Under the pieces are notes generated by a model. The model had not been told where the DNA came from. It did no database searches and was given only the letters and a program-made list of their open reading frames with translations. Made by a program: the position numbers and the translations under genes. A stretch of 64,000 nt of DNA from Phoronis australis. Its lineage: Eukaryota > Animalia > Phoronida. Shown here piece by piece: positions 21,135 through 51,918 of this stretch. Position 1 is the stretch's first letter, and every line of letters begins with the position of its first letter. The DNA is taken from assembly GCA_002633005.1 (NCBI GenBank), contig NMRA01000048.1, positions 624,303 to 688,302 of the forward strand. The letters are read 5' to 3'.

Positions 21135-21190
21135 CAATGACTTGTTTGCTGTGTCAGTGATTTAAAGGTATGTGTTAACAAAAGCTGATT

Positions 21191-21345
21191 TTAGTGTTCA
21201 TCATACATGTATTAGTGTTCATCATACATGTATTAGTGTTCATCATACATGTATTAGTGTTCATCATACATGTATTAGTGTTCATCATACATGTACTTGT
21301 GTTCATCATACATGTATTTGTGTTCATCATACATGTATTTGTGTT
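21191..21345. repeat. 21-bp minisatellite, ~7 copies, in presumed TYW3 3' UTR
   Basis: GTGTTCATCATACATGTATTA tandem units. Confidence 0.95.
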
Positions 21346-22670: not shown

Positions 22671-22778
22671 AAAGTATGAACACAGTAGATAGGCAAGGGT
22701 CAGCCTAAAGTATGAACACAGTAGATAGGCAAGGGTCAGCCTAAAGTATGAACACAGTAGATAGGCAAGGGTCAGCCT
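22671..22778. repeat. 36-bp tandem repeat x3
   Basis: AAAGTATGAACACAGTAGATAGGCAAGGGTCAGCCT, three perfect copies. Confidence 0.95.
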
Positions 22779-22799
22779 AGTCTCATGACCAAGATCATC

Positions 22800-24271: not shown

Positions 24272-24276
24272 ACAGC

Positions 24277-24463
24277 TGTTATGTTTCTATGTTAATTGGT
24301 TTCGGACCAAAGATGAAGAGTGATAAGAATGTGACTAAGGCATATAATATTGAGAGTACATGAAACCATAAACCTGAACAGGAAGTGCTAGGTAACAGAG
24401 CATGCGTAATATACTAAGATACTGGTAGCGACATCTTGAGTTACTACTGACCATAATGTAACA
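24277..24463 (-). repeat. 3' LTR of element A
   Basis: Direct repeat of 46373-46563; purine tract adjacent on the minus strand. Confidence 0.93.
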
Positions 24464-24609
24464 TCCTGCTTACACTATGAAACACTATTTTAATTTTAAA
24501 ACTATGATAACTGGTCCTAACTCTAAGACAATGGGTGGACTATCATTGTCTGGACAGTCAAACGGGGATTATTCTGCCCCAACGGTTTGACTGCTTGTAA
24601 CTACATTTC

Positions 24610-25660
24610 TGTTGTAGTTGCTTCATTAAGCAGCCAACAAAACATCGTGAGTTCCGGTACAGAATTTTATTTCGAAACTGAACTGCTAGCGACCTCTATA
24701 GGTCAAGATATACAACACTCCTCTACACTAAAATGAATGTCCTTATAAAACAAATACACGAGATAAACTCTCCAAGGTTGCTTGAGGTTCTAAAAAGTTC
24801 ATAAAACGTTAACTACTTGAAGAAAAGTTTTAAAGATTGTCACAACTAAATCACAGATCCAGTCTTACCGGTGCCTTCCTCATCCAGCTTGGGTAGCGTC
24901 GCTCAGGTTGGGATGTTTGAGGGACGTATTCCGGCTGAGGATGTTGAGCAATTGAGGGTTGCGGCAGTGGTACAGAAATGGACGCGGGACACGGCACAGC
25001 TGGTGATTCTATAGATGGCTCGACACGGGTCGCAATTGTCGGCTGTTCTATTTGAAAATCAGCAGTACGCAGTTGATCCGCACGCCGGCGCCAATGAGCA
25101 TCCGGTGATTTTTGTACCTTGTACGATACCGGCCCAGTTCTTTCCTTAACTACTCTAGGCACCCACTTGTTTCCGGGTCTATAGTTTCTAACGGCAACGT
25201 GCTCACCGAGTTCAAAACTTCTTTCGTTTGCTGGTTTCACCATTCGTTCTTGGTTAAGTTCAATGGTTGCTCTCAAATTTGGCCTGACTAAGTTCAGTGT
25301 CGTGTTCAGCATGCGACCCATCAGGAGCGTTGCTGGGGCCTGACCAGTTGATGAGTGCGGTGTGTTACGGTACGTCAATAAGAAGTCATACAGTTTTCTT
25401 AGGAAAGTGCCTTTGTCGCACTTTGAAGCCTCGATGGCCGACTTAAAGGTTCCCACAAATCTCTCGGCCAATCCATTCGTTCTAGGATGATACGGCGCTG
25501 AATGTATCAGGCGAATTCCGTTTCGTTTGAGTTGATCCCATCGTCGCCAATATGTCGTATTTGCTTCATTAAGCAGCGAACAAAACATCGTGAGTTCCGG
25601 TACAGAACTTTATTTCGAAACTGAACTGCTAGCGACCTCTATAGGTCAAGATATACAACA
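24610..25660 (-). mobile_element. Gypsy mini-element C (LTR-PBS-integrase C-terminus-PPT-LTR)
   Basis: 108-bp LTRs 24610-24717 and 25553-25660; TSD ATTTC; PBS TGGCGACGA---TGGGAT (tRNA-Ser-GCU-like) at 25535-25549; ORF 24851-25588 carries SAPYHPRTNGLAERFV and the GPVSY motif. Confidence 0.93.
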
Positions 25661-27038
25661 ATTTCTTGAATGAGTCATGCTGGTCTTGTAACCGTTCATC
25701 CGGAGTGTGTAACCACAGTGCTCTGGGTGGGTGAAATGATGGGAGGCTTAGCCGCAGTATTGCGCGTTTCAGGAGCATGGTTAGGCGGTGTTGGTCAGAC
25801 CTCAGACAGTGGTTCGCGGGTGGTAACGTTCAGCATTATTTTGTCAGGTACACTGGTTTGGAGAAGCAAGGTATCTCTGGTGTCGGGATCTGTGGCCATC
25901 TGAGCTGGTGAGGAGGCGAATCTCATGATTGTGCCATGGTCCTGCACTTGTTGAGGTCTAAGCAGGATGCGGTTGCTGCGAAGTATGCGACTGCTTGTCT
26001 CGCATTATACCGTATATGACCATGGTTCTGGGCCTACTCCGATGATGGTGCCAGGTGGCCAATTCTTCATGGCTGTTGTGTTGTGTATTTTCAATAAAAT
26101 ACAAGAGACTGGTAGCCATAGCTCAGCCATTTATTGGGTGAACACTAGAGAGCATAGTGTGCAGCGCCCTTCTACATCACATATATGAACTACCAAACTA
26201 CATACATATGAAGTGATATCCTATAACATCCCTCGCTTTCACAATAGTTTATAACATGTGATTACAGGATGAATGTACACATCACTACGGTGATTAATTG
26301 ACATATATATATATATACGTTCAAAATGAGCTCTGAACTACCGGTAATTCTATTTGAAACAATATGTTTACGAACACTGCAAATGTATATATTATAGGCG
26401 TGTAATGCTGAACATGTTATATCTGGTGAATGTTACATGTCTCTACTGTACTAGTAGCCTTACATCTCTTCAATTATTCTACTGGGTTTCGTGCTAGTTC
26501 TACAGGACTGTCTAATAGTTGGGTTGGACATTCGACGAGGGTACCTCTCGTTCGACATTTTCTTTAAACCTAACATGCTTTGAGGTGGTTTGACTGGTTT
26601 CATTGCCCATGTCCTGATTAACAGATTCACTGAGGTGTAATTTCTTGGCAGCTTCTGGACTGAGTTCTTGTAAGAACCTGCGAACAATGCTGCCATTGGG
26701 TGTCAACACCAAATAAGATCTACAGGGTAGGCTCTTTGCACTTATTTGTTATCGTGCCTGGGACCCAACTCGTTTTATCATCTTTTTGGACCAGCACCTT
26801 CATACCTGGGAGCAATTCAGACATTTCAGAGCCTGCATGGGAATTGTATCTATTAGCTGACTCTGAACTTAGGTACTTCATTCTGTCTCTTACATCAAGC
26901 CAACTACCTTTGAAGTCTGACTTGACTGGAAGATTTGAATTGATTTTTCTACCAAACAATAGTTCAGCTGGGCTCGGAATTTGATTGTCAACAGGTGTCA
27001 CCCTGAGACACAATAAAGCTGTCTGAGGATCCGTGCCG

Positions 27039-28847
27039 TGTATAGTTTGTTGTTGTAGCGTTGAGAGTGTACACAAGCAATAACTATCAGACTGGCTTGA
27101 CTGACATGCCTTTATTTCTACATGGCTGAACCCGAAGCACCGGTAAAAACTATCTAACGATTAACTCAGAGATAAGTTAGTAAACATTCAATCACACATC
27201 CCCCTTCTAAAGTTTTGAAGAAACTACTTAAACTAAGCCCTAAAGATATAAGTCCATCTTAAAACTTAGAACGTTCAATAGAGTCACTCTTCAATGAGGC
27301 GCTCAGGTCCATTCCGAGGAGGGCTAGATCTTCTAAGCTGCGTCAGTTGGGTTTGTTCTAAATCTGGTGTCCGCAGTGTTTCCTGGTTGTTCACTGGTGC
27401 CTCCTGTTGTGCGGATGCTGAAGGTGGTTTGTACAGGTCACGTCGGTTACCACGACCTTCTGCTCCTTCATCTGTCTGAACCAGGTAAGACCGTGTTGAC
27501 ACTTATTCGCGTACTGTGGCCTTGTCGTCCCACTTCTTCGACACGTGGTCGTACACGTTTACTTTGTCACCAACGTGTAGAGGGGGTAGAGCTCTCATGT
27601 TCTGATCGTAGTAGTCTTTGCGTTTGTCGTTTTGAGACAACTTAAACTCAACCACATTTTTAGAGTTTTCTACCTTTAGTAATGCTGGATGGACAGGAAC
27701 ACTGGTTCTGACTTTTCTTCCCATCAGCAACTGGGCAGGAGATAAGCCACATGATATAGGTGTGGCTCGATATGCTTGCAAAGCCTTATACATGTCCACG
27801 TTCTTCTCGAGCAAATGTTTGACTTGTTTCACGGAGCTTTCCGCTAAACCGTTTGAGGCAGGGTAGTGTGGACTAGACGTGATATGTTGAAAGTCCCACT
27901 CTTTGCTGAAGTTCTTGAACTCCGACGAACTATATTGCGGGCCGTTATACGAAATAACCACGTCAGGCGTTCCATGGCGAGCAAACATGGACTTCATCGC
28001 TGCTATCACTGCACCACTAGTTGTAGACTGCAGGTACGATATTTCCAGGTACAGAGAATAGTAATCGGTTACTATTACGTACTGTCTCTGTTTGATCTGG
28101 AACAGGTCAGATCCAACCCTTTGCCAGGGTCTTGTAGGTACTTCATGGGGTTGTAGAGGTTCCGCTGCTTGTCGAGGAAGGTAGGTTTGGCAGGTAGAAC
28201 AATTCTGAAGCATCTGAGCTATGTCCGCATTCATTCCGGGCCAATACAACAATTCTCTTCCTCTACGTCTACACTTTTCAATTCCCATGTGTCTTTCATG
28301 AATCCTCAATAGCATTAAGTTTTCTCAGTGACTTAGGTGTGACGAGTTTACATCCCTTAAGCACTAGTCCATTTGCAACAGACAGTTCTTTTCGAACATT
28401 CCAATAGTTGCTGGTGCCTGTAGGGCATTCACTTTTACTTTGCGGCCATCCGTCTAAGATGACAGCCATAAGGTTTGTCAGTTCTGTGTCTTTGGAGGTC
28501 TCCTTGATTTCGTCTATTCTCGCGTCCGAGATCTGCATGGTGCGGAAAACCATATCAATGTAGCAGTTAATGTCGTCTTCCGAGGTTGTCTGGTTTACTG
28601 TCTTTTCTGGTGCTCTCGAAAGCGTATCAGCGGCTGCAAGATGTTTTCCAGGTGTGTACTCGACCTTCAGGTCATATTGCTGCAACCGTAGCAACATCCG
28701 TTGTATTCTTAGTGGACAGTCGATGAGTGCTTTCTGAAATATATTCACTGAAGGCTTGTGGTCTGTTTCTGCAACCACTGTTGCACCATATATAAAAACT
28801 ATCTAACGATTAACACAGAGATAAGTTAGTAAACATATAATCACACA
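27039..28847 (-). mobile_element. Gypsy element F, nested in the integrase of D; 5'-deleted
   Basis: 3' LTR 27039-27198 with PPT; 53-bp 5' LTR remnant 28795-28847; flanks TGCCG/TGCCT; RNaseH end and INT ORFs 28296-28778, 27503-28315 and 27284-27502. Confidence 0.88.
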
Positions 28848-29319
28848 TGCCTTATTGAGCACAGGCTTAATAACACCGACCATGCGTTCGATAAAACCAT
28901 TGCTCTGTGGATACCTGGGGCTACTTGTGATATGTTCGAATTCCCACTTAAGAGCAAAATTCCTAAATTCTGCTGAAGCATATTGTGGTCCATTATCTGA
29001 GTACATTATTTTGGGTATGCCGTGAACAGCAAAGAGGTCTTTGCAAAACTTAATGACTTCTCTGGCTAACTCATCTTTCACAGCTCTTGCAAATGGCATT
29101 TTACTGAACTGATCCACTAACAGTATGTACTTGTCACCAGTGTCAACCGGAAGTAGTCACTGTGGAGTACTTCCCATGGTTGACAAGGAATTTCGTGGGC
29201 CATCATAGGCTCCTTAGGATTGCTTTTGGCGTTTTGTAAGCAAATCGTACAATCCTTCACTAACCGAGTGATATCTGAAGTCATATTGGGCCAATATACC
29301 GATTCTTTTGCTCTGAGTA

Positions 29320-31435
29320 CCCATACGAAAAAGTGCACTGGACTTTCAGTTGGGACAGGAATTGAATTCAATTGAGGTTCAATTGAGATTCAATTGAAAT
29401 TCAATTGAAGTTTTCCCATGTAAATGAATTGATTCAATTCATTAGCATATTCAATAGCCATTCAATAGGAATTCAATAGCCGTTCAATAGCCATTCAATT
29501 CTCCATGCAGTACAGGATCATCCCATATTCAATAACGATTCAATAGCCATTCAATAGCCGTTCAATGGCCATTCAATTTTTCTAACTATACAGAATAATT
29601 TGAATTTCAAGTATTTTCTATAATAAATTAACTCTTTCAAAAATAGGATGTATTGTTGTTAACCTGTTCAAGAGATAAGAACAGTTCACAATCTTCATTC
29701 AACAACCTGGTATGCATGAATACAATCAAATCATAGACAACTGAACATTTTGAAACCTTAAATCGAAACTTGCACAAGTATTACAATTATCATACAGCAT
29801 CAGTCAAAGAAAAACAAAAACAGAGCCTTAGGCATTTGAAAAGTAGCAGCCTTTGTAAACATTTTGAAGAATCTAATGCTGACTAATTGTAGATTGTTTT
29901 TTCAACATTTGTATGCTGAGCCTCGTACATGAAATAATCATATAACACTATGAACTTAGTTGAACACATCCATACGTTGAAGGGTAAATGAGTATTTTAT
30001 ATTCAGTTAGCTAAACAAATGTAGGCGATAAGATAAAAAATAATAATTTCAGGCATACAAAGCTATAGCAGCAAAATATTAGTTGTCTGAAAAGCGTGGT
30101 CCACATGTGATACCAAATCTTTAAATGTCGGCATTGTACAGCCTTTCATGGTCTCTGCAGAACTCTGGAGTCCGCACTTTTCAGAGCACTGAGACTTGAT
30201 ATAATCCATTAATTTGAGGTATCTGTCCACAACAGGAACTGATGACCGGCACAGTGTTGGTAGGTCAGTGGACATTAACTCCCAAGAGTTATAGTCTTTT
30301 CACTTCATCATGCATATTTTCAAAGTCTTCTTCTGTACTAAAAAAGTTGAAAAATATCCAGTTAGAGGGTATCAAATAAAGTATTAAGTAAATTTGAATT
30401 TTGTATTGAGCTTGTCGCTCAGGAAATACATGAATGCATTCTTGTTTAATTAGCCATAGTCTTTAGAAAATTTAATATGCTTTTGACTAAGATCATTAAT
30501 AAGGGGGTTATTTGTTACACTAATGGAAACTCATAGCTGAAGTTTGATTTTTAGTCCTATGAGCAGAACAGTTAATTAAACCATACTGCAGAGACACTAC
30601 GGGTAGATGACTGGTGGCAATGGCAAACCTCTAATACCCGATACATCTCTTACTTAGTCTCTATAGCTCAATTATTTAGTTTCAGTTCATGTAACCAAAA
30701 TAAAAATTTACTTTTCTCTCATTGCTCTGATGTGAGAATTTTAACACAGAATCATAAAAACGTGTTTCTTAAGTCTCAAGTAATTAATGTCAATAAAATA
30801 TGTTAGGTCAAAACACGATTAACTGAAATCTGTCTGTGCTCTACTACATAACTTCCATAACCTTAATCAATTGAATCAGTTAAAAAAACTTCCGTTTTGT
30901 TTGCAAGTCTAAAGCTACTCATTCATATGTGAAACATAAATGTCACTTAACAATCAAATTGACAAAAATACAATGTTGAAATCAAAAACTCACCATTTAA
31001 TGTATCCAGTTCTTCACTATCCATGCAGAGTTTATGCTAGACCAAAACCGTTTGAAAGGGTTTGAAAATCTTAAAGGTCACTTTCCAGGAATGTTACCTT
31101 GACAACCAATTGGTAACACAGGTTTAAAATAAACATTGCTGGTAACTTGCTAAATCAAACCATCCAGAAATTCCTTAAGTCCTCAAATTCAATAACTATT
31201 CAATTCCGAACTGCCAAAATTTTCCTAAGTCCTGGAATTCAATAGCCATTCAATACAGAACAGCTAAAAATTTTCTAAGTGCAGAAATTCAATAGCCGTT
31301 CAATAGCCATTCAATTGACGGCAAGGGAAGTGCCAATTGAATTTTCATTCAATAGACATATTCAATAGAACTTCAATTTTCTATTGAATTTCAATTGAAT
31401 CTCAATTGAAACTCAACTTTTCCTTTTTGTATGGG
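29320..31435. mobile_element. Non-autonomous CACTA/EnSpm-like DNA transposon in the integrase of D
   Basis: TIRs CCCATACGAAAAAG/CTTTTTGTATGGG; TA TSD; dense subterminal TTCAATAGCC/TTCAATTGA repeats; removal restores HASHLGQTKC-I-LRAKESVYWP. Confidence 0.85.
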
Positions 31436-33927
31436 TATACATTTGGTCTGACCTAAATGACTAGCGTGAATGCGATCAAGATATTCATTCCTCATACTCG
31501 AAGGGATAACTAGTCGAGGGCCATCGTAATCCATCTTCTACAGATAGGAAATCTCTGTTAGACCAATAGCTACGCATAGTTTTCGGAACTAACTTTGCTT
31601 CATCCGGCCATCCTTTGTTCAGCTAGACTACTAAGCTCATCATCAGCTCTCGATGCAGTTCTCACGTTTTCCAACTGCCCTTTGATACTTGAATAACATG
31701 TATAGTTTTATCAATCTCTATAGTTAAACCAGTGGTTGGGGACACTCGTGAGAGATAGTCAGCATAGCACATTTTGTTACCTGGCCTGTAACAAAGGCTC
31801 ACGTCATAGGGTTGTATTCTCAATAACATTCTCTGCAATCTTGGGGGTGCTTTATCAAGCTGTTTTAACTTGATATTCACAAGCGTCTTATGGTCACTAT
31901 AGATTGTGACTAGCTTGCCATACACGTAAGTGTGAAACTTCTCGAGGCCGTATACAACGGCTAAGAGTTCACGCTCAATGTTTGCATATCTGGATTCAGT
32001 AGGTGTCAAGGCTTTGGATGCAAATGCAATTGGTTTGCCGTTGTGAATTAAAGCAGCTCCTAAACCCTTCATTGAAGCATCTACTTCATTCTGTACGGGA
32101 GTCTTAGGGTCAAAATACTGCAACTCCATATCAGAGTTTACTGCATTTTGCAGTTCTTTGAAAGCTAATTGGTGTTCGGCACACCATTCCCATTCAGAAT
32201 GTTTTTTGCAAAGTTGTCTTAGTATGTGGGTCTTGTTAGCTATTTCGGTATGAACGGTGCAAGGTACTGTACTAATCCAAGGAAGCTTTGTAATTCCTGG
32301 ACATTTTTGGGTGCATCCTTGCTTTTTAGTGCGTTGCATTTGCTGGGGTCGGGCTTCATGCCATCCCGTGACCAGATAAGGCCAAAGAAGGTGACTGATT
32401 CCTGTCGAATTTTGCACTTTTCAGCCCTTAGGACAAGTCCATGTTGCCTGGCAGCTGCTATGACTCTATGCAAGGCCTTGTCATGATCCTCTATGTTATT
32501 GCCATAAACTACTAGGTCATCTGCTATGCCTAGGACACCATGGCCAGTCGTCCTAATGACGTCATCCATGTGTTTCTGAAAGATATCTTGCGATGAGTCC
32601 AAAGGGTACTTTCCGAAAGGACTCTGGAAAGTACACAGGTTACTACTGTGTCCGTCAAGTTCGATTCCCCAGTAGCCATGTTTTGCATCTAGCTTGGAGA
32701 AAACTGTGGACCCGTGCAAGTTGTGGCTAATTTCTTCAAGCGTAGGGGTTTTGTGATAGGTATACGCTTTATAGCTAAGTTGAGATCCTTAGGATCAATA
32801 CATACTCTTAATTCGCCATTGGGTTTTCTGGCAAATGCTAGACAGTTAACCCATTCACTAGCCAAAGAATCGTCAACTTTTGCTATCACACCCAGGTTCT
32901 GCATTTCATTAAGCTTGGCCGTCAGTTAACTGAATTGGGTATTTGCGGGGTGATGCTACGACAGGCTCTACCTTAGGTTCCAGTTCTATGCGAAACTTTC
33001 CTGGCTTGTGACCTATTCCCATGAAACATTCAGGATACAACTCTATCAAGGTTTCACAATCAGGGATTGGAGTTTTAGAAGCTTGGGTCTGAGGGGAGGG
33101 CTTACCGTCTACATATGATATGTTTTTGCTATGCGAGACTGATATTATACCTAGTCTCTCAGACATACCACAAGATAGAATGGCAGGGCCATCCGTAGCG
33201 CACACGTAAAACCTACTATTTACCCACTCAGAGTTATCTAATTTGACATCTAGATCAATACAGCCTAACTGTGGTACGTTAGAAACATTAACTGCCGTTA
33301 GTTTGACATTAGATGGATGAGAGATTCATAACCATCAGGGTACATTTGTTTGACACATCGTACGGGTAGGATACTACCGTTTGCACCAGTGTCGGCTTTT
33401 ACACACAGTGTGATGTTATGGTAGTTGTTGGGTGCCCTAACATCAAGTTTGGCATAAATGCTTTGCCTTAAACTATCAATTACAACAAATTCACCACATT
33501 CTAAGGTACTGAAGTCATTGCTTAATTCTTTGTCCACAGCACCAACAGATCTGTTTGTGTTCTTCTTGCCGTTGTGCTTCTCGCTGGGCCTCCTTTTGCG
33601 TGATGATCTCTTTCGCTGCGATGTAGATCTCTCCTTACGGTTCTTGTAGCATTTGTTTCCTGAGTGATTTGGTTTGCCGCAGAGCTCGCAATTTTTTCCA
33701 TACACTGGACACTGTTTGGGCGGGTGGTTTGTGCCGCAAAAACGACACTCACGACAGCTGCTTCGGCGGAATTCATGGACTGACGCGTCCAGTTGTGGGT
33801 CGAAGCATTTCGTGTTTCTGGTCGTGGCTTCAAATGCGCGTGCACATGTAACGGCATCAGCTAGTTTAAGATCGTTTCCTTTAGCAATCAGCAATGCCTT
33901 TAATTATTTGAAAAGATAGTTGCATAT

Positions 33928-36900
33928 AGTTGATGTTGCCGGATTTTGTATATGATAAAATAAACACAGTCTTAGACGGAAGCCATCTTTATTTCAACTC
34001 CCTCCACTAGCACCACCTAACAGTTACATAACTAACTACTCAACACCTTCCCCGTCTAGTTTTTTTTTTTTTTAAAACTCAAAAACGTTAACAGAAAAAA
34101 AATGATAAAGCTTATAGAAAACAAAGGTTGATACTAAAGTACATCAATGCTTGCTTACAGCAAACAGAAGCATCCTACAACCCCTGAGTGTAATGATGTT
34201 ACTATGTCTAAAACACTTATTCTAGAAACCGTTTAGGAGTTTTCACTTGACGGCCGGAACGGGTGACATAATAGGACCTATCACTGCTTGCAACGATGGG
34301 TGGTGTTGGTGGGCCATTTTCGTTGGTAGAATGATTCTCAGAGAGGTCTGACTCCACCGTAGGCAAATTATTTTGAATGTTAATAGGCATAGGTGTCACC
34401 ACCGGAAGCAGGGGTGGGTTATACACCTGCTTGTGCATGCTCTCAAACTCAGAGTCTTGGTATCCCTGAACTACAGGATTTGATGGAGGCGCAGCAAGTC
34501 TCACTTGGGCTCTATTTCTACGAACCTGGCCGCGAGGTGTGTTAACAACATATGAACGCGGAGAATCATTACCTGCAACCTGCCCATAAGCCCAAGGACC
34601 AGATTTATTATGCGGAGAAGGTTTAACATAAACAAAATCACCTGAACGTATATCAGGTACATCACATCTGATATCCTTATTATAGTTTAACGCAGCCCTT
34701 TGCCGTTTCTGCTCAATCTCAGACGAAACTAACGGAGAATACGCTGGAGTTAACAGTGACCTAGGAGTCGGAAGAGTACTTCTCGTTCGGCGACCCATAC
34801 ACCGCTGTGCTGGACTCAACGTGTGACCCTGCTGAGGAGTATTACGATAGTACAACAACCCTAAAGTGACATCATCACATTTTTTAACAAGGGATTTAAA
34901 CACCTTCACTGCCGACTCCGCTTTTCCATTACCCTGGGGCCAGTAGGGAGACGAAGTTTTATGTTCAATGGAATACATTGAGCAAAACGACGAAAATTCA
35001 CGACTGATATACTGTGGCGCATTGTCAGTCAATAGTACTTCGGGTATCCCGTGACGTGCAAAGTGAGCCTTCGTTTTTTCAATTACTGTCATAGACAATG
35101 TATTTGGCAACAGGTCAATTTCAATAAAATCAGAAAAATGGTCAACCGTTACTAGGTACGCTTTCGAGTTGTACTCACATAAATCTTGGCTAACGAATTG
35201 CCATGGATACTGTGGTATCGGTTGTGTCAACATAGGCTGCTTTGGGTTCTCTGAAGCAAATTGTGCACATTTACCACAAGCAGAACAATAATCTGTGATA
35301 TCAGCCCTCATACCCGGCCAGTAAATAATATCCTTGCACAACCTTATGCAACTTTCAGCACCAGCATGAGAGGAATGTATACGCTTCAGCATGTCCCGCC
35401 GAAGCGAAGCAGGTACAACAGCCTGTAAGCCCCGATAAACTATACCGTCCTGGACAGACATCTCGTCTCTTATTGACCAAAAAGGAGCAAGTTGCATGGG
35501 TAGTTTTGATTTAGAATTTGGCCAACCATGTTGAATAACAGAACACAATTCTGTCAGCAAGGAATCAGAGGCTGTTCTTTGTTGTAACTCTTTCATGGTA
35601 CTCGATGACAGCTGGGGATTATGTTCAGAGTCACAAAGAACTTTATCTACTCGAAATAGTTCAAAACTGTTAGGCTTAGCCTCGTTAAGAGCTAGAAGAG
35701 GGGCTCTAGACAAAGTATCCGCAATAAGTAGTGAAGTACCTTTCTTATAAATCACTGTCAGATTGTATCTCTGCAATCGCAACATTATTTTTTGCAACCT
35801 ACGGGGGGCTTTCGCAAGGGGCTTCTTAAATATTGTTTCTAGGGGCTGGTGATCCGTGTGTACAGTTACTTGTTTCCCGTATATCCAAAGGTCCCATTTC
35901 TCACAAGCAGAACAAATTGCAAGTGCTTCCTTTTCAATTTGGGCCCACATTAGTTCATTGGGGCGCAAAGTGCACGAGACAAACGCAACAGGCTGCAACT
36001 TACCACAAGTCGCAGGCTGAAGGAGGGCACCACCTAAACCAGAGTCTGAAGCATCCACCTGAAGGACAATCGGTTTAGTGTAATCAAAATAAGCCAAACA
36101 AGGGGCATTCGTGATCATCTTTTTAGTTTTTTGAAATGCTTGTTGTGCAACCTTAGACCAAACAAACATGGAATCTCTCCTAGTCAAATCGTACAGTGGC
36201 TTGACAACAGATGACAAGTTTGGGCAAAAACTACCAAGATAGTTGACCATCCCTAGAAATCGTTCTACACCCTTTTTTTCAGTGGGGGCAGGCATGTCAT
36301 TTATGGCTTTAACCTTGTTAGGATCAGCCTTAACACCAGACTCAGTAATTTGATGGCCCATGAAATTGATAGACTTGAGTTTAAATTGAACTTTATTTGG
36401 ATTTAGTTTTAAACATCTGCTCTGGGCTCTTTCCATGAGTCTCACAACATTTGCGTCATGATCACGTTCAGCCTCCGCTGGACTGTCTCCAAGACCAAAG
36501 ATCAAAATATCATCAGCAATGCTTACAACACCCGGTAAACCATCTAATGCTTCATGGATGCGTTTCTGGAATTCCTCCGGGGCAGAAGATGCACCATAAG
36601 GTAACCTAAGCCATCTGTATCTACCCCAAGGCGTTTGCATTGTGGTGGTCAGGCTTGACTCGTCATCAAGGCGCACTTGGGTAAAACCATCCAAGGCATC
36701 GACAATAGTAAAACACTTGTATGCTTTAGGAGATAAGCGTGGTAGTAACTCATGAATAGTTGGAATCGTATACTTGGGTATGACAATAGCCTTATTGATT
36801 GTTTGACTAGGATCCAGACACAATCTTGTTTTAACATCACCTGACTCGGTGCGCTTCTCTACAACGTGCATGTTAGAGCACCAATCAGTTGGCTCATCGA

Positions 36901-38671
36901 CCTTAACAAGTTTGCCAGATGCAACCATCTCATTTAATTTAGCTTTCACCCTTTCACGTTTTGCAACTGGTAATCGGTGAATGGGTGCATGAACTGGGGT
37001 TACAGAGGGATCCATCGTGAATTTTACAGGTTGACCTACATCACCCAAACCCCGAAAATTATCTGGATATTTATCAAATAGCAAATCTTTTGTGAGAGGG
37101 CGATCAGTGAGAACAGTGTTCACACCTACATCAGGTGTTTCCTGTTTCAAATTGGGGCCATAGACTCGAGTTTTGTCATAATCAATCAGCTGCATTTTAA
37201 GAGCAGTTTGGTTCCCAAGCAATGCCATTTTAGATGACGATACAACCTCAACCTCAAAAGTATCAAATTTAGTACCCGTGTCACAAATCAGAGTGGCTTT
37301 CCCAACAGGCAATACCGTGTGGCCAGAATAGGATTGAAGGCGTGCTTGAGATGGAGTTAAGCTCTTAATATCCCCTAATTGTTTGAAAAGTTCGACTGGC
37401 ATCGTATTGCAAGTTGCGGCCGAATCAAGCTGGAAGGGTATTTTAGAGAACTTTTTACCATCAACTGACATTGACAAACTAGTGAATAATTTGTGAGGCA
37501 CATCATTGGCTACTAAATTCACATCATGAGTTAAACCTAAAGTATACTCAGCATTATTAGTTTGTTCAGTCCCCAAATGTTCATGTTCCACCATATTCAG
37601 TTGCTTTGAGTGTGACCCGCCTTGTCCTTGACCTTTGTACTGGCTTCTAGTATTTCGACAGACTCTAGCAAAATGATTAGGTCCATGGCACTTTAAGCAT
37701 GTAACTCCAGGCCGTGCAGCAGGACAGTTCACGCGAGTATGTTTCTCATTCGCTCCACAGAAACCGCAAAATATATTGTATTGCTTTGGCGCACGCGACT
37801 TATTTCTTGTCACAATTGACTCCTCGCGATCAGGCGCACGCGACTTGTGTGTCGTAAGGTTTACCGACTCCTCGAGACGTTGAGATTCCATGACCTTTTG
37901 ATTTATAGTGTTCGCGGCCTCGTATGCCTTGGCCTTGCTAACTACATCGGCTAAAGTAAAAACACTACCGTCCTCTTTGACATGCCTTAAAAGTTCTGCC
38001 CTCAACTGATCATCCAAAATACCAGTCACAAAACGGTCACGTAACAACTCTTGCTCCGGGTTTTTCATTGTGCTGTATTTACATTTTGATCCTAAATGTT
38101 TGATTCTCGACTCAAAGTCCGCAATCGATTCTCCACTTTTTTGTTTTCCCAATTCCAAAAATTTCATTCGATTGGCTAGAACCGTGTCCTGTGTACTATA
38201 CTGCTTTAGTAACATAGACTGCCACGTCCACGGAAAACCTTTATACAAGTCATCAAACCCGTCCTCAGGCGGAGTGTCAGTCATTGCTGGCACGAGAGTA
38301 GTCTTTAATATTTTCAACACTTCCATGGGAAGAGCTAGACGAAATGCGCAAATTTCCTCGGCATAACACTCCGGCTTCCAATGTCTCCTGTCGTCTGCTT
38401 CATACTCAGATTTCCGCCAACCCTGCAGTGTGCAAAAATCTCCAAATACCTCTAACCACAATTCAACTGACTCTCGCTTGTCATCACAAGCCTGCAGATC
38501 AAGCTTTGGTGGTTTAGTTTTTGACATTTTTCGCGATCCCACTCCTGACACCAAGTTGATGTTGCCGGATTTTGTATATGATAAAATAAACACAGTCTTA
38601 GACGGATGCCATCTTTATTTCAACTCCCTCCACTAGCACCACCTAACAGTTACATAACTAACTACTCAACA
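33928..38671 (-). mobile_element. Intact Gypsy element E (Mag/SURL-like), nested in the gag of D
   Basis: 118-bp LTRs 33928-34045 and 38554-38671 differing at 1 base; 4-bp TSD ATAT; 18-nt PBS TGGTGTCAGGAGTGGGAT (tRNA-Leu CAG-like); PPT GGGGAAGG. Confidence 0.97.
34217..38527 (-). CDS. Gag-Pol polyprotein of element E (~1436 aa)
   Basis: Single ORF with two CCHC knuckles, protease LDSAA, RT IADDIL, RNaseH VDAS, integrase HHCC and D,D(35)E (SQDL/TDNA/AESA); first ATG after the PBS is at 38527. Confidence 0.97.
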   Translation of the reverse strand: MSKTKPPKLDLQACDDKRESVELWLEVFGDFCTLQGWRKSEYEADDRRHWKPECYAEEICAFRLALPMEVLKILKTTLVPAMTDTPPEDGFDDLYKGFPWTWQSMLLKQYSTQDTVLANRMKFLELGKQKSGESIADFESRIKHLGSKCKYSTMKNPEQELLRDRFVTGILDDQLRAELLRHVKEDGSVFTLADVVSKAKAYEAANTINQKVMESQRLEESVNLTTHKSRAPDREESIVTRNKSRAPKQYNIFCGFCGANEKHTRVNCPAARPGVTCLKCHGPNHFARVCRNTRSQYKGQGQGGSHSKQLNMVEHEHLGTEQTNNAEYTLGLTHDVNLVANDVPHKLFTSLSMSVDGKKFSKIPFQLDSAATCNTMPVELFKQLGDIKSLTPSQARLQSYSGHTVLPVGKATLICDTGTKFDTFEVEVVSSSKMALLGNQTALKMQLIDYDKTRVYGPNLKQETPDVGVNTVLTDRPLTKDLLFDKYPDNFRGLGDVGQPVKFTMDPSVTPVHAPIHRLPVAKRERVKAKLNEMVASGKLVKVDEPTDWCSNMHVVEKRTESGDVKTRLCLDPSQTINKAIVIPKYTIPTIHELLPRLSPKAYKCFTIVDALDGFTQVRLDDESSLTTTMQTPWGRYRWLRLPYGASSAPEEFQKRIHEALDGLPGVVSIADDILIFGLGDSPAEAERDHDANVVRLMERAQSRCLKLNPNKVQFKLKSINFMGHQITESGVKADPNKVKAINDMPAPTEKKGVERFLGMVNYLGSFCPNLSSVVKPLYDLTRRDSMFVWSKVAQQAFQKTKKMITNAPCLAYFDYTKPIVLQVDASDSGLGGALLQPATCGKLQPVAFVSCTLRPNELMWAQIEKEALAICSACEKWDLWIYGKQVTVHTDHQPLETIFKKPLAKAPRRLQKIMLRLQRYNLTVIYKKGTSLLIADTLSRAPLLALNEAKPNSFELFRVDKVLCDSEHNPQLSSSTMKELQQRTASDSLLTELCSVIQHGWPNSKSKLPMQLAPFWSIRDEMSVQDGIVYRGLQAVVPASLRRDMLKRIHSSHAGAESCIRLCKDIIYWPGMRADITDYCSACGKCAQFASENPKQPMLTQPIPQYPWQFVSQDLCEYNSKAYLVTVDHFSDFIEIDLLPNTLSMTVIEKTKAHFARHGIPEVLLTDNAPQYISREFSSFCSMYSIEHKTSSPYWPQGNGKAESAVKVFKSLVKKCDDVTLGLLYYRNTPQQGHTLSPAQRCMGRRTRSTLPTPRSLLTPAYSPLVSSEIEQKRQRAALNYNKDIRCDVPDIRSGDFVYVKPSPHNKSGPWAYGQVAGNDSPRSYVVNTPRGQVRRNRAQVRLAAPPSNPVVQGYQDSEFESMHKQVYNPPLLPVVTPMPINIQNNLPTVESDLSENHSTNENGPPTPPIVASSDRSYYVTRSGRQVKTPKRFLE

Positions 38672-41600
38672 ATATCTTTCTCAGGCTCAGCGAAGGCGCA
38701 AGACACTGCTTTCGACTGTACACGACACAGGAAATCGTCGAAAGGTTCGTTGCTTTTTTGGGCAAGTTCGGAAAATTCCAAACGAGCAACCCATTGATTA
38801 GGGGTGCCGACCAGGTAGTCTTGAAATTTCTTAAATACATTGGCTGGTATCTTTTTCTGGTCATCGCTCAACTTCCATGTTGTCATTAGCTCATTGCCAT
38901 TTTGCCCCGTTGACAGGAGAATGTGCCACTGTTTGGCAGCCGTGATCTCTCCAATAGCAAAATAGCTTGTAAACAGGTTTTTCCACTCTTGGAAAGCTAG
39001 TGCTTGGTTAGGTGCATCCCATCGTAGCTTGGGTAACTCGACACCTCCCGTTGCCATATTGAACACAGGTAAGTATATCCAAAACCACGAGGTCAGGCAG
39101 GAAAATTGGCCAAAAACTTACAGGAGTTTAAAAGGTCGACGTTGGAGTCATCCGTCCACAGAACAGCCTCAATCGGTAACATCATTTATGAATGCATCTC
39201 CACATGGGCCATTTAACACCGCTGCCACCATGTTGTGTTGTGTATTTTCAATAAAATACAAGAGACTGGTAGCCATAGCTCAGCCATTTATTGGGTGAAC
39301 ACTAGAGAGAGAGCATAGTGTGCAGCGCCCTCCTACATCACATATATGAGCTACCAAACTACATACATATGAAGTGATATCCTATAACAGTGGCGATGTC
39401 TTTATAATACACGCGGCGCTTGTTCAGCTGCAGTTCTTCTACTTCATGCATTTCAGATGACGCTGGTTGTCTTCTCGCTGGAGTGGTTGTCTTTGGACAT
39501 AAGTTGGCAGTTCTCAGCTTTCGGCTGAACATAAGTTCAGCGGGGGAGGTCATCTGTGGGTTTGTGGGTGTGGTCATGTATTGGAGAAAAGCTTTGTCCA
39601 GGTGCTTTGTCTTCAACATCAGGTTCTTGACGGTACGAATCTACGAATCATGCGTTCAATGAAGCCATGTGAGCGGGGGTGGTGGGGCGATGAAGTGATA
39701 TGTAAAATGTCGAACATCTTTACCATGGCTCTGACGGGGGCTCCGATGAATTGGGGCCCGTTGTCGGTGATCAAGGTGTCGGGTGGACCAAACATGGTGA
39801 AGATATGGCTGAAGATGCTCGCAACTCGCTGACTGGTAGAGGTGTTCAGCTTCTCGACAATGAAGTACTTGGAGACATAATGAGTGACGATGAAATATTC
39901 TTGGCCGTTTATATAAAACAGGTCAGCACTAATGGTGTGCCAGGGGATGTTTGGTATGTCATTGGTGACAGATTCCAGAGGTTCTTTGGTGAAGAGCTCT
40001 GATGTTTCTGGCATGTTTCGCAAGTGGGTACGAGGTTTTCTATGTCCTTCATAATGCCATGCCAATAGATGGTGGATCAGGCCAGTTACTGTCTGCAATG
40101 GAGCCTGTGCAAATAGTCTTGTTGAAGCGAGAGTGGTATGAGCACCTGAGTTCCCTTGAGGAGAAAGCCATCCTCGATGGTCAGCAGATCTCTAATGGAC
40201 CAAAAAGAGCGGATGTTAGCCGGTAAGTCGCGTGCCTTTGCTGGGAAACCACCGAATCCAGAGAGCCAGTGTTTCGTGTCTTTATCAGTTCTTTTTTAGT
40301 TCTTGTAATTGGTGGGTTGAGAACTGTACGAAGTTCACTCTGAGGTCAAGTGGAATTTCCTTGTAGACATTGGCAGTAGGGAGACGCGACAATCCGTCGG
40401 CAAGGACCGTCTCGGGTCTGTTATGTATAGAGCAAGTCAGGTGATCCAGTGAGTTAGTTTATTGCTCATGTAACTGGCACTTTTGCACAATTTGGTCAAG
40501 TGTCAGATCCTCTGACCAAAGTTTATCACACTAAGCAGTATCTCTCACCCCTAGACTGATCTGCTTACACAATTGTCTGTCCAATGTGTCCCCAAAATCG
40601 CAGTAGGACGCGGTTTCGCGTAAATTGGTGATGTACTGCGCAATAGATTGCACTTCTTTTTGGATCCGATCGTCAAATTGTTTAATGTATAATTTTGTTA
40701 CCTTCCTAGGTTCAAAAAAGTCATCGAACATCTTTTTCACTTCTTCATAATTGTGCTTCTCTGCGTCGTTTACGAAGATGTAGTTTTCATACACAGTCTG
40801 ATACTGTGAACCCATCGAATATATCAGGATCGCAACTTTCCTAGCGTCCTCCGCATTGTTCAGTGCTGCCACGATGAAGAAATTCGCTTAATCTGCTTTG
40901 TGAGCCTTCCACGATTGTACAATGTTATGTCCGTCGTCAAATTTCGGGCACACAAACATGGAGCCCGCTGTCATGTTATTAGATGTGGTGTGGTTACTTG
41001 ATGATCACTTAAGATGGAAGTAAGAGTAAAATTCTATTGTCTTAACACACTACATCATACAGGAAGAAGCACTGCATTATAGGTCAGGCACAATGGGATT
41101 AATGCTAACAGGTGTTACAAATAAATATTATGACATCTCCCCTTCTTGAAGAAACAGATGAAGCTGACATGAAAAGTCTAATATCCTTTAAACTACGACA
41201 ACAAATGTTCCGTGTAACACTTAAGGTGTTAACAAAAAAAGAAAACTAATAAAATAAAATGCTCCGTTTTCACAAGTCCATTCTCTGAGGTTTCCGCACA
41301 GCACGTCCACGTCGGGTAGTCGCAGGAGTATCAGTATGAATTTCGTTAGGGATATTTGGTTCTTTGGCATCGATGTGTCGAGTTCGGTCTGCTGGTCAAT
41401 TTCTAAGTTTTCTGAGGTCTTGCGCAAATGTCTTCTGTTGCGACGGAAAGTTCCTCGGTTGGTTGTCACCTTGTACGATCGGGGTATGGCTTCCTGACTG
41501 AGAACCTTTCCAGGTTCCCACATCTTGGTATCTATTTAGCATGCATACATTGTCGCTCGGATATAGTGGAGGTAACTGTTTTGAGCCGGGGAAGTTGCGC

Positions 41601-43511
41601 TTCTGTGCTTCTTGGCGCATTTGAAGTGCTTCGTTGCTCTCTCCGTTCCCCTTGGTAGGCAAAGAAGGTAGCATGGTGCGATACCTTCTGCCGTTGAGCA
41701 GTTTACTTGGAGACGGAGTTTTGTGATCAATCGGTGTTGATCTTAGGCACAACATTGCCAAGTGGGGGTCACTGCCTGTCTCGAAGGCCTTGGTGAATAG
41801 ATTCTTCACTGTCTGTACCATTCTTTTGATGAACCTGTTGACTTGGGGAAACATCAGTGATGTTGTAACATGTTCTAGTTCGTATACTTTAGCGAACTGT
41901 TTGAACTCGTATGATGAGAACTGTGGTCCGTTGTCTGAGACGATCTTCTCGGGGAGACCGTGTTCATCAAATATAGTCTTCAAATGGTTGATGACAGAAC
42001 CGGACGTAGTTAAGTGTAATCTTCGTACGATGGGAAACTTGCTGTACATGTCAGCGACCAAGAGATAGTCCTTCTGTTGCCAGTAGAATAGGTCCATACC
42101 AATTGTGTGCCACGGTCTAGGTGGAACGTCTAGTGGTAATAGAGGTTCTTTGCCATTTGCATTCTGGTGGGCTTGGCACGATGCACAATTGAACACGATG
42201 GCGTCGATGTCCTTGTTGATTCCATCCCAGAATACTGTCGTTCGGGCTCGTAATCGGCACTTTTCGATTCCTTGGTGGGCATAATGAATCTGTTTGAGCA
42301 CTGTTTGGCGTAATGATTGTGGCACGACTATACGTCTTCCTTTGATGATGATTCCATCTTCAACTCCCAACTCGTCTCTGAAGTTCCAGTATCCATGCAG
42401 AGTGGTGGGGCAATCAGCTTTGGAGTTAGGCCATCCATCGGCAATCATGTTTCGTAGTACCATCATCTCAGGGTCCTTCGCTGTCTCATAGCGGATCTGA
42501 GTTGGACGAGTATGACTGACATTCAGTTGGTGTAAGGTGCTCTGTTATACCAATAAAGTCATATATCCAGTATATTAATACGTTTATTATGGAGAGCACA
42601 AATACACTACTTATCAAATCGAGCTGTAGCCATTAGAGGAAGTAGGTCAAGTTCAATGTGGCTTCCAAATAACAACATTACTTAACTAACACATGACATC
42701 TCCCGTCTTCAAAAGAAAAACAAAAGAATATTCAACTACACTAAACTAACTTATGAAAAGTTTACGAAAGAACAAAGTCCTTGAAGCGACTGGGTAGCTT
42801 GATTTGTCGTTTAGGTCTGCCACCTGTAGACTCGGGCTGCGGTGGTTGGTTGGTTTGTTGAATAAGGCGTCCGCCGGGGGTTTCCAACTTACAATCGGGT
42901 GGCAACGTTGGTGGTGGGAGTTTTGGTTCACTAGATGAAGTCTCCGGCTGTGGGGACAGCTTTGATGCAGGACAATCTTTCGAGTCTGGATCCAGACGCT
43001 GGGGTATCAGGCTTGGCTTTATATGCACACGGTTTCTTGAGTACTTAACACCGGCAGTGTCTTTGACAGTATACGACCGTTCACCGTCTGTAGATGAGAT
43101 TGTGCCTTGTGCCCACTTAGTCTTGTCCGAAGACGGGTTTCTAATGAACATTACTGGTTGGTTCTCGGAGAGACGGGTGGCTTGCTGTCGGTTGGCGTTC
43201 TTGTAGTCTGTGTGCTTTTCAGAACGGGTACCGGCTTTTTCCGACACGTGGTTGTCGAAAAATGTGATGGGTATACTCGGCAGGTCGGTTTTCACCTTGC
43301 GGTTGAACATTAGTTCGAACGGGGATGGAATGCCATGGGACAATGGGGTGTCTCTGACGCACAACAGGATGTCTTCCATTGTTAGACTTTCTTCGCCTTT
43401 AGATTTCTCCATTAAGAGCTTTAGCATTCCTATTGATCTTTCACATCTCCCGTTTTGCCATTGGGAATGCGGTGTGGCAGGTTCATGAACTATGTTGTAC
43501 TCCATGCACAG

Positions 43512-43992
43512 NNNNNNNNNNNNNNNNNNNNNNNNNNNNNNNNNNNNNNNNNNNNNNNNNNNNNNNNNNNNNNNNNNNNNNNNNNNNNNNNNNNNNNNNN
43601 NNNNNNNNNNNNNNNNNNNNNNNNNNNNNNNNNNNNNNNNNNNNNNNNNNNNNNNNNNNNNNNNNNNNNNNNNNNNNNNNNNNNNNNNNNNNNNNNNNNN
43701 NNNNNNNNNNNNNNNNNNNNNNNNNNNNNNNNNNNNNNNNNNNNNNNNNNNNNNNNNNNNNNNNNNNNNNNNNNNNNNNNNNNNNNNNNNNNNNNNNNNN
43801 NNNNNNNNNNNNNNNNNNNNNNNNNNNNNNNNNNNNNNNNNNNNNNNNNNNNNNNNNNNNNNNNNNNNNNNNNNNNNNNNNNNNNNNNNNNNNNNNNNNN
43901 NNNNNNNNNNNNNNNNNNNNNNNNNNNNNNNNNNNNNNNNNNNNNNNNNNNNNNNNNNNNNNNNNNNNNNNNNNNNNNNNNNNNNNNNNNNN
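43512..43992. other. Assembly gap (N run)
   Basis: 481 N; another 11-N gap lies at 21824-21834. Confidence 1.
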
Positions 43993-44245
43993 ACTCAATT
44001 CTCACTCAGATTTTTTCTAAGTCTGAAATTCTCACTGATTCTCACTCAGAATTTTTCTAAGACCAAAATTCTCACTGGATTCTCACTGTTACATAACATT
44101 TTCTCACTCATTCTCACTGACTGCCCCTGTTGTTCAATTCCCACTGGGTTCTTACTGGCATTTCTAACTATAATTGGTGATTTAGTGAAAATCTAACTGG
44201 AATCTAACTGGAATCCAGTTAGATTCTCACTTTCTTTTTCGTAAA
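43993..44245. mobile_element. End of a second CACTA/EnSpm-like element inside K
   Basis: Clustered TTCTCACT subterminal repeats and terminus CTTTTTCGTAA resembling the 31435 TIR; the other end is in the gap. Confidence 0.55.
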
Positions 44246-45756
44246 CCTTTCTGAATAATTACACACAGCTCACTGAGGGCTGGGTCATTTCTTGTCTCAT
44301 GTTTTATTTTTTCCACGTCTGATTCGGTTGCTGAGTTCACCTCAAAAATTCCGACTGTCATAACATCAGACAACATTACTTAATTAACACATGACAGTTG
44401 GAGCTGTATCTCGTGTACGGTTATGTCAAATCCTGGGATTGTATCTGCAGCACATGGGTCAATACGTGATAGGGCATCTGCTAGCGGAACTTTGTTCTTG
44501 CCTACGTACACTAAGTCGAAGTCATATTTCTGGGTCCTTAGCAGCATACGGGCAAGCCGGGGTGATGCGCTTGAGATAAGTTTCTTCGTAATAGATTCCA
44601 ACGGCTTATGGTCACTTGAACATGTCTGCCATATAATTGTAATGGTGGAAGGCTTCCAGACCAAACACGACCGCTAGATATTCTCTCTTAATATTAGAAT
44701 AACGCGATTCGGTTTCTGTTAGTTTGCTTCTATACTCGATTGGTCCACTTTCCAGGAGTAGTGCGGCTCCTAGACCTTTGGATGAGGCGTCGACCTGTAC
44801 TACTTGTGGTTTTGAGTTATCATAGTACTGCAGTGTTTCTGGATTGGTGACTAGGGCTTTGACTTGATCTACTGCCTTCTGGTGCTCAGGTCCCCAGATG
44901 AACTCGTTCTTTTTATTGATCAAGTCCCATAGTGGTGCGGCTACCGACGCTAACTTGGAGGTGAATCGGCTCAGGAATTGGGTCATGCCGAGGAATGTTT
45001 GAAGACTTCGAGACTTTGTGAAGGGTCCATACGGGCGATGGCTTCAGTCTTGCGTGGATCAGGGCGTATGCCGTTGCGACTAATAATTTGACCGAAAAAC
45101 GGGATTTCACTACACCGCATGTGACATTTATCAGCATTGAACTTTATTCCTGTCTGTCGAGCGACAGCCGCCATCTTGAATTTTCGCAATGCAATGTCCG
45201 ACCTCTAATTCTTCGTCAAAATCACTATTACAGCGTGCAGATACTCGTTAGACGGAATGTTTCAGAAACTTGACGTTCCAAAGATCAACAATGCCCTAAG
45301 ACTCACTCCTGACACCATGTTATATATGCAGGAAAGGCCGAAGCTGAAGAGACAACTCGTGTCCGTGTTAGATACTACTGTATTCGACGCCGGGTGGCGC
45401 TATACATAACAGGGTCCAGGTCTGTATTTGATCTGATAGTCATATTTTTGTAAATGCAGAAGCATGTGCTGCAGTCTGGCAGGTGCCTTGTGCAGGGGCT
45501 TGGTCACAATCATTTCCAGTGGCTTGTGGTCACTTTCTATAAGGAATGGTTGGCCAAAAAGGTCTTTACCGAAATCACATGCGAGTAGTTCTCGATCGAT
45601 GTTAGCGTAACGACTCTCTGTGTCTGTGAGCGTCTTAGAGGCAAACACGATGGGTCAACCATTTTGCGTCAATGCCTCACCTAGGGCAGACTGAGATGCG
45701 TCGACCTGCACGACTAATGGGATCTTCGGAGGCATGGGTTTGTATCCCACCGCTGC

Positions 45757-46366
45757 GTGCAGGTGATTTTCAGTCATAAAACAGTTAAGTGCAGTAAGTT
45801 CCTGGTTTCATGGCAGGACATTCTTTCCAAGCACCACTGGCACTTTTGAGACTGAGCCGGTGCCGGCTTGTTGTCGTAATGGCGTTTGTCTGCGAAATTG
45901 ACTTGTTCATGGAGAGCGACTGCTTGCATGAAAGTCATGTTGGTTGTATCTGTTGCCTCCCAGGACTTGGCTTTGTTCAACTGTTCTTGGAAAGGTAGAG
46001 TTCTGCTGTCCTCTTTAAAATGATGAAGCAACTGTTCTCGTAGGTCTTTGTTTTGGACTCCTGTGCAGAACCTATCTCTCATTAGTTCTTGTAGAGGATC
46101 TGTCATGTCTGCGTATTTAGTCTTTGCGGCAACCGTGCGAATTCTTGTCTCAAAGTCGGTCACGGATTCATTCGGCTTTTGTGTCAAGTTAAAGAATTGT
46201 AATCTCTGGGGCTTGATGTCTCAAAATCCCACTCCTGACACCAAGTTAAGCCGTGAGTTTGGCTTTTGTTCGGATTATAACTACAACACTGCGTTCAAGT
46301 CGTTTATTCCAAAGATGGCGGACAATCGTCTCGCCCTCTAACGTATACAGAGTGAGGCTCTCAACA
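45757..46366 (-). mobile_element. Gypsy element B remnant inserted in the PBS of A
   Basis: LTR 46244-46366; PBS TGGTGTCAGGAGTGGGAT at 46226-46243; gag fragment 45774-46187 homologous to E gag (QELMRDRFCTG vs QELLRDRFVTG). Confidence 0.88.
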
Positions 46367-46372
46367 CCACCA

Positions 46373-46563
46373 TGTTATGTTTTTATGTTGGTTTCGGACC
46401 AAAGACGAAGAGCGACAAGAATGTGAACTAAGGCATATATATTGAGATTACATGAAACCATAAACCGGAGTCGGAACAGGAATTGCTAGGTAACAGAGCA
46501 TGCGTAATATACTAAGATCCTGGTAGCGACATCTTGAGTTACTTAACTGACCATAATGTAACA
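46373..46563 (-). repeat. 5' LTR of element A
   Basis: Direct repeat of 24277-24463; followed on the minus strand by the PBS start TGGTGG. Confidence 0.93.
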
Positions 46564-48499: not shown

Positions 48500-48660
48500 C
48501 ATATTCTAAGACATTCTTGTCATATTCTAGCCATGACTAATTACTTTGTCACATTCTAGTCATGACTAATTACTTTGTCACATTCTAGCCATGACTAATT
48601 ACTTTGTCACATTTTAGTCATGACTAATCATTTAGTCACAGGCGCATATTAGTCATGACT
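48500..48660. repeat. ~29-bp minisatellite
   Basis: GTCACATTCTAGCCATGACTAATTACTTT units. Confidence 0.85.
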
Positions 48661-51798: not shown

Positions 51799-51918
51799 AG
51801 TTAAGCCATGAGTTTGGCTTTTGTTCGGACAACTACAACACTGCGTTCAAGTCGTTTATTCCAATGATGGCGGACAATCGTGTCGCCCTCTAACGTATAC
51901 AGAGTGAGTTTCTCAACA
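51799..51918 (-). mobile_element. Solo LTR of family B in an ENGASE intron
   Basis: Close match to 46244-46366; 4-bp TSD CCAT on both sides. Confidence 0.93.

Follow-up and report, generated by a model that had tools for sequence, protein, structure and literature searches.

It is still an open question how new clusters of PIWI-interacting RNAs (piRNAs) originate and expand; the size and scrambled state of most known clusters prevent their dating. A locus of the phoronid Phoronis australis raises this question on a small scale. We analysed 64,000 nucleotides of contig NMRA01000048.1 (the window; assembly GCA_002633005.1, positions 624,303 to 688,302 of the forward strand), in which nine different Gypsy retrotransposons are inserted into one another between the genes TYW3 and ENGASE. 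Why should all nine lie on the same strand? The nested, non-redundant, single-strand series is accompanied by antisense RNA over its right part and right flank. We consider it probable (about 0.6) that the locus, lying on a long transcript that is probably a read-through product of TYW3, is a young uni-strand trap for transposons or a source of putative piRNAs.

Self-comparison and direct reading of the sequence resolved the 22.3-kb nest (24277-46563) into nine different Gypsy elements, which without exception occupy the minus strand; two DNA transposons with CCC ends are also present. Element A, the outermost, spans the entire nest between ACAGC/ACAGC target-site duplications (TSDs), with long terminal repeats (LTRs) at 24277-24463 and 46373-46563 and pol remnants at 25661-26073, 39390-40418 and 45417-45760. 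Elements C, D, G and B lie inside A. The internally deleted C (24610-25660; TSD ATTTC/ATTTC) is located near A's 3′ end. D, in A's integrase (26074-39389; TSD ATGGC/GTGGC), is full length with stops and frameshifts, and is colinear with its relative P0150 across three insertions; F, a 2.1-kb DNA transposon and E lie within it. F, in D's integrase (27039-28847; TSD TGCCG/TGCCT), has lost its 5′ two thirds and retains a 3′ LTR (27039-27198) and a 54-bp 5′ LTR stub. E, the youngest member, lies in D's gag (33928-38671; TSD ATAT/ATAT), and its junctions are covered by contigs of two sequencing runs (X1 and X2). G, in A's RNase H (40419-45411; TSD GGGTC/GGGTC), has a 5′ LTR (45318-45411), a primer-binding site (PBS) ending at 45317 and a gag remnant (40430-40968). 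Its ends (40419-40465 and 45318-45411) do not form an LTR pair: the left one consists of a 12-bp inverted match to the right one, followed by gag-like sequence. J, inside G (40969-45200), was recognized by a tblastn chain against P0156 and a polypurine tract read in the sequence; it has a 3′ LTR (40969-41135) and runs from reverse transcriptase (RT) to integrase, with its 5′ end lost. K, inside J (42531-44396; TSD GTTGG/GTTGG), consists of a 3′ LTR (42531-42698), an integrase and a 27-bp 5′ LTR stub. B (45761-46366) lies a few bases inside A's 5′ LTR boundary and comprises gag, a PBS ending at 46243 and a 5′ LTR (46244-46366), its 3′ part being lost; its gag is 61% identical to P0048 and 44% to E.

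The first DNA transposon, inside D (29320-31435), is non-autonomous and has CCCATAC termini, terminal inverted repeats and a TA/TA duplication. The initial annotation had labelled it EnSpm; the termini agree with that label, and we take the element to be EnSpm-like on the strength of these termini, while the DNA-transposon frames gave no Pfam match above the cut-off. The second, inside K, is partly hidden by a 481-N gap (43512-43992; gap and transposon end together, 43512-44243). It is a high-copy element (contig depth 172-484, loose ends) and has no DNA match to the first.

All seven TSDs listed in the initial annotation were located; five are perfect, and those of D and F match at 4 of 5 bases. 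B and J have no TSD and each lacks one LTR, so their place in the tree follows from position. The earlier statement that each member has its own LTRs holds for complete pairs only in A, C, D and E, since one LTR is reduced to a stub in F (54 bp), K (27 bp) and G (~10 bp). Reading frames had also been described as rejoining across the insertions, but D's frame, interrupted by F, is not taken up again in register. The LTR pairs differ at 7/182 sites in A, 4/108 in C, 2/155 in D and 1/118 in E, and these ages (0.8-4%) agree with the nesting order. The stubs of F (3/54 mismatches) and K (1/27) give wide intervals that overlap those of their hosts. From the LTR divergences and TSDs, the order of insertion is thus consistent with the tree, and the nest as a whole is young. 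An open gag-pol frame survives in E alone; the other members have stops, frameshifts or large deletions, the latter often beginning within an LTR.

We then searched the window by tblastn with 120 related polyproteins as queries. Of the 1978 matching segments, every one was on the minus strand, against 0 on the plus strand, and their positions were confined to 24887-46373; the same search gave no Gypsy coding match in the remaining 42 kb. The PBS motifs likewise lie on the minus strand, both the four complete ones of the two main types and that of C. With nine of nine Gypsy elements in the minus orientation, the one-strand bias is strong. Where at least 80 residues aligned, identity between the integrase cores of seven members (A, C, D, E, F, J and K) was only 24-43%, and the DNA matches between members were confined to an 18-nt PBS common to B and E and to K's own LTR stub. 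Boundaries, TSDs and strand counts therefore confirm the nine-member minus-strand nest that had been described, and the sequence comparisons confirm that no family is repeated. The members fit Ty3/Gypsy in their order of RT, RNase H and integrase, their TG-CA-type LTRs, their PBSs and their TSDs of 4-5 bp, and their nearest named relatives are K02A2.6-like proteins. They may belong to the clade named Mag.

Every Gypsy after A landed in another Gypsy, and B did so at A's PBS, as would be expected if Gypsy integrases favoured relatives in the same direction and the RNA were incidental. However, no position is common to the insertion sites (PBS, gag twice, RNase H, linker, integrase twice, and 3′ end), and the TSDs differ too. 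As a control, we examined related elements at 79 loci from metagenome and viral contigs. Of the eleven flagged, eight were excluded: these were copies that were circular or in tandem, duplicates of themselves, or pieces of a single element. All three second-family neighbours, a small number from other hosts and with nesting not proven, lay in the opposite orientation, two of them adjoining a cut-off RT, which argues that co-orientation is not an automatic habit of this group. In addition, the passages of PMC6911290 and PMC1794594 that bear on nests give no general same-orientation rule. Orientation-specific targeting is therefore quite improbable as an explanation of the nest. A metagenome contig also contained three head-to-tail copies of one related Gypsy element (L010:154-14349).

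Six of eight listed runs were compared: X1, X2 and X3 as contigs, and X5, X6 and X7 as raw RNA-seq, of which ~18-19% of each run was read. Repeats in a draft genome may be misassembled, and the window does contain N gaps and, at 2551-3773, a 613-bp, 99% identical tandem duplicate around a single N, which is probably an unmerged assembly overlap. Nevertheless, seven Gypsy boundaries carry TSDs, and other runs supply contigs across the junctions F/D, transposon/D, D/E, E/D, J/G/A/B and A/flank; the contigs of X1 and X2 cross the nest-specific junctions within 31395-33982, 28819-29366, 38579-39260 and 45134-46037. Because independent runs span several junctions, misassembly, which had been named as a possible undoing of the earlier interpretation, is very improbable. 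Two variant forms were found, one with a joint that lacks C (24607-25664, in X2) and one with a joint that lacks K (42523-44395, in X1, X3 and two plus-strand X7 reads). These are alleles or other copies, and they suggest that the insertions are segregating. X1 also carries four extra letters beside G's right TSD (45410). Across 28492-41903, the single-family parts had a depth of 0-8 in X1 vs 15-30 on either side, which may represent a common allele with a large internal deletion.

The raw RNA-seq runs were stranded, as calibrated on host genes (depth 5.8 vs 0.3 in the bin of the last TYW3 coding exon; 1-3% opposite-strand reads for ENGASE). The left half of the nest was covered by the stranded runs X5 and X6, and the right half by X6 and X7; read counts were estimated from depth, with mates not independent. 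The J/G/A/B composite, unique to this locus, lies within 44310-46715. Over that interval the plus-strand share was 0.92 in X6 (~31 vs 3 reads) and 0.88 in X7 (~24 vs 3), so that RNA over 44.3-46.7 kb was mostly antisense to every Gypsy in both of the stranded runs that covered it. In the unique right flank (46716-49522), the plus share was 0.94 in both X6 and X7. Plus-strand RNA peaked at 48721-49121 (18× in X6 and 35× in X7) and faded at 49.5-49.9 kb near plus-strand AATAAA sites; this peak was as deep as, or deeper than, the last TYW3 exon (~13-15×) and ENGASE (3-11×). On the left flank, X6 had ~11 plus and 0 minus reads, a contig at 22750-24190 had a depth of 19.7 in X1 and 6.4 in X2, and the RNA level was ~1-25% of that of the TYW3 exon in four runs. 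The plus-strand transcript antisense to the elements that the initial annotation had proposed was thus recovered in the nest's right part and on either side of it, while the middle was sparse and mixed in strand. Nine co-oriented Gypsy elements with opposite-strand RNA over their right part make a piRNA defence locus likely.

The contig runs bear on where these reads originate. X1 and X2 had been labelled 'DNA?' by guess, but both hold spliced TYW3 (depth 81 and 50, respectively) and spliced E, with spliced ENGASE in X1 as well; both were therefore read as RNA-rich. Flank depths in X1 were 20-48 vs 3.7 in the ENGASE intron bin. X3, which covers the right half only, was flat over unique sequence and unspliced and was therefore read as DNA. 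Its depth at 45112-45913 was 11-12 vs 7-18 in unique bins, so the plus-strand reads there probably come from this locus. The internal pieces of G, A and B had flank-like depth in X3 and those of J and K were deeper, although such depth is not a copy number. The bins of A, B, D and G showed little sense RNA, and those families may have no other close copies.

TYW3 (plus strand) and ENGASE (minus strand) converge on the nest. TYW3 is expressed and spliced, lies directly upstream on the same strand as the RNA, and stops at 21134, 3.1 kb ahead of A. Its mapped parts are a coding exon at 16002-16066 (a weak Pfam TYW3 match, E 0.007), which RNA reads join, with loose ends, to the exon at 20.9 kb; the last coding exon with the start of the 3′ untranslated region (UTR) at 20906-21167 (stop codon 21132-21134); and a 3′ UTR exon continuing into the left flank at 21544-24276, which includes an 11-N gap at 21824 and is the candidate read-through segment. 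A GT-AG intron (21168-21543) lies in the 3′ UTR, 33 nt past the stop. On the other side, the unique right flank with the 3′ end of the plus-strand RNA extends over 46564-49900, with plus-strand AATAAA at 49453, 49815 and 49826, and yielded no Pfam or Rfam family above the cut-off. The ENGASE exons, as far as mapped, lie at 51036-62712 on the minus strand (Pfam Glyco_hydro_85 and Ig_ENGASE1_C; tblastn; minus-strand RNA; splice 51390-51979), and the coding sequence ends at 51036. Between 49100 and 50000, the plus-strand RNA meets or overlaps the 3′ UTR of ENGASE, and AATAAA is present on both strands. Since the genes converge, the nest is antisense to TYW3 and, by the splice joints listed, lies in neither gene's intron. 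Placement inside an intron of TYW3 or ENGASE was rejected because both coding sequences end outside the nest; the unseen plus-strand intron suggested earlier is likewise unsupported, as neither gene extends into the nest and the splices listed include none on the plus strand over it.

The newest member, E, has a single open gag-pol frame of 1436 amino acids with Pfam RT, RNase H and integrase; no env was present, the frame ending ~170 bp short of the 3′ LTR. Sense RNA of E, mostly from other copies, was spliced at GT-AG sites within pol (34829-36526). A 753-nt splice, in frame from the end of RNase H to the integrase zinc finger, had 28 and 15 reads; a 468-nt splice, in frame within RT, had 3 and 3; and a 350-nt splice, out of frame in the integrase core, had 6 and 5. 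Being spliced inside pol, these RNAs could not encode the whole of pol. Splicing is one form of piRNA-linked control of Gypsy elements; a search on this point returned nothing relevant. Antisense E RNA (33820-38481) had a mean depth of 4-5× vs 0.2-0.5× in adjoining D, and matched the window at some sites where the sense reads differ (34276 and 38348). This pattern points to a second, antisense-transcribed copy of E or to another allele.

Several observations weigh against a trap or piRNA source on one long transcript. The locus was chosen after the fact for its strand bias, from a large scan. Among the runs compared, no read or contig joins TYW3 to the nest, and two N gaps break the path; X1 has a zero-depth bin at 41503-41903. 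The left flank in X5 had 3 plus and 3 minus reads. Mid-nest counts were mixed: D pol reads were few (~3 plus vs 4 minus in X5 and 6 vs 4 in X6), 38482-40450 had ~14 plus vs 15-16 minus, and 40300-43507 had ~11 plus vs 23 minus in X6, though 17 vs 1 in X7. This mixture arises partly because multi-copy families add reads from elsewhere. The nest shows no depletion of AATAAA on the plus strand (14 plus and 15 minus). E is still transcribed in sense from other copies (mean 19-24×), and spliced E RNA is also present in X1 and X2, the runs that carry the nest copy. In size, the 22-kb nest is a tenth of the smallest flamenco-syntenic Drosophila cluster named in the passages of PMC10643416 (227 kb).

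The after-the-fact choice bears most directly on whether this is a neutral nest whose single orientation arose by chance and was noticed through scanning many windows, the RNA being unrelated leakage. The probability that eight insertions match A by chance is 1/256, as the initial annotation had calculated; the arithmetic is right, but the figure describes a locus picked from a large scan and is not small against very many windows, and the plus-strand RNA in mid-nest is thin. On the other hand, the strand was predicted ahead of the RNA result, and the right-flank RNA equals or exceeds that of both neighbouring genes. We therefore regard chance as improbable.

A passive filter would account equally for the orientation and the RNA. 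The plus-strand RNA would then be a long 3′ extension or a non-coding RNA with another role; sense LTRs, which would end or splice it, would be purged, antisense copies would be tolerated and no piRNAs would be made. That E is not silenced in the samples examined favours this explanation. It leaves unexplained, however, why nine Gypsy families are gathered here vs one solo LTR, and no Gypsy coding match, in the other 42 kb, which is mostly intron. That solo LTR (51799-51918, minus strand; TSD CCAT) belongs to family B, with 6 mismatches in 120 to B's LTR, and lies in sense in the last ENGASE intron, so that a sense LTR was tolerated there, albeit in one case. The flanks also lack any Pfam or Rfam family above the cut-off. 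We consider passive filtering unlikely, and retain the trap or piRNA source on a long TYW3-linked transcript as the better account.

Such a locus would have formed through nested insertions like those observed, with the outer elements older and one copy per family. Plus-strand RNA, which rises toward 3′ over 44.3-49.5 kb and was seen at a low level on the left flank in one of the two stranded runs, would belong to one long polyadenylated transcript, read through from TYW3 and ending at AATAAA near 49.45-49.83 kb. Insertions would arrive in either orientation; antisense ones would be kept because immunity is gained, whereas sense ones would give no immunity and may shorten the RNA. Landing inside older elements would be cheap, and deletions would trim the older ones. 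The antisense transcript would finally be cut into putative silencing piRNAs acting in trans. According to the passages of 10.1101/458059, young cluster insertions should segregate and give unstable suppression in simulations of the trap model; behaviour of this kind would fit E and the forms lacking C or K, without proving the point. A more specific and tentative possibility is that we see a piRNA cluster at birth: a Gypsy insertion behind TYW3, at most ~4% LTR divergence ago, may have seeded a trap that captured at least nine env-less families in readable order and keeps one trimmed antisense copy of each. Its newest entries would be segregating, and the older families may survive nowhere else in the genome.

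Elsewhere in the window, an old dispersed repeat family with internal subrepeats (70-88% identity) is frequent outside the nest (4490-7275, 13288-14680, 20129-20495 and 61144-62174) but has no copies within it, and a LINE 3′ fragment lies on the minus strand at 63418-63885 (Pfam zf-RVT). Outside the nest, the initial annotation had reported one solo LTR and one Pao relic; the solo LTR is the family B copy in the ENGASE intron, and the supposed Pao relic received no Pfam match. An Rfam scan of the window gave 0 matches. Pfam searches of 52 of the 55 short flank and DNA-transposon frames (three simple-repeat frames excluded) gave three weak matches, all below the cut-off.

Narrow word searches of the literature on marine invertebrates turned up no account of a nested, Gypsy-only cluster comparable to this one. 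The idea itself is not new in kind: read-through uni-strand clusters have been published for mosquitoes and mammals, and uni-strand ones for slugs. According to the passages of Qu et al. (10.1101/2022.08.22.504762), the RNA-seq signal of read-through core piRNA clusters in mosquitoes is highest at the cluster 3′ end. The present locus resembles them in being uni-strand, directly behind an expressed gene, with antisense cargo and RNA highest at the 3′ end. However, Aedes clusters are enriched in non-retroviral viral inserts, whereas this locus is Gypsy-only and strictly nested, and the read-through and piRNAs demonstrated in mosquitoes are here putative. The piC-DoG clusters of mouse, human and hamster, as presented in the passages of PMC11615739, similarly have dense antisense transposon pieces behind a host gene on a 3′-extended transcript; they are mammalian, with LINE and endogenous retrovirus cargo and mapped piRNAs, whereas this locus is an invertebrate one with a datable nested series. 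The slug uni-strand piRNA clusters (PMC11615739 and PMC12506671) likewise carry antisense transposon fragments outside insects and mammals, although the passages on them give neither a nesting order nor a link to a host gene.

The flamenco and flam-like uni-strand clusters of Drosophila share with this locus an antisense bias carried by Gypsy elements. As the passages of PMC10643416 describe them, they extend over hundreds of kb, flamenco has its own promoter, and they target env-bearing elements in follicle cells. Here, in contrast, the elements show no env and the locus occupies 22 kb between two ordinary genes. Closer to a possible starting point is Tirant in Drosophila, where, in the passages of PMC13226689, single antisense insertions in host 3′ UTRs suffice as piRNA sources. 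Element A could have founded this locus in a similar way, as a single antisense LTR element inserted in a minor 3′ extension. Insertions of the Tirant type are single and transient, however, whereas at least nine have accumulated here in one place. The trap model predicts one copy per family, antisense copies only and silencing after capture, and at this locus those predictions are open to direct test outside insects. Compared with the known systems, the locus is unusual in being small, strictly nested and datable: its whole history is contained in 22 kb, in which each insertion has a place in the tree, four LTR pairs give ages and some entries are apparently polymorphic.

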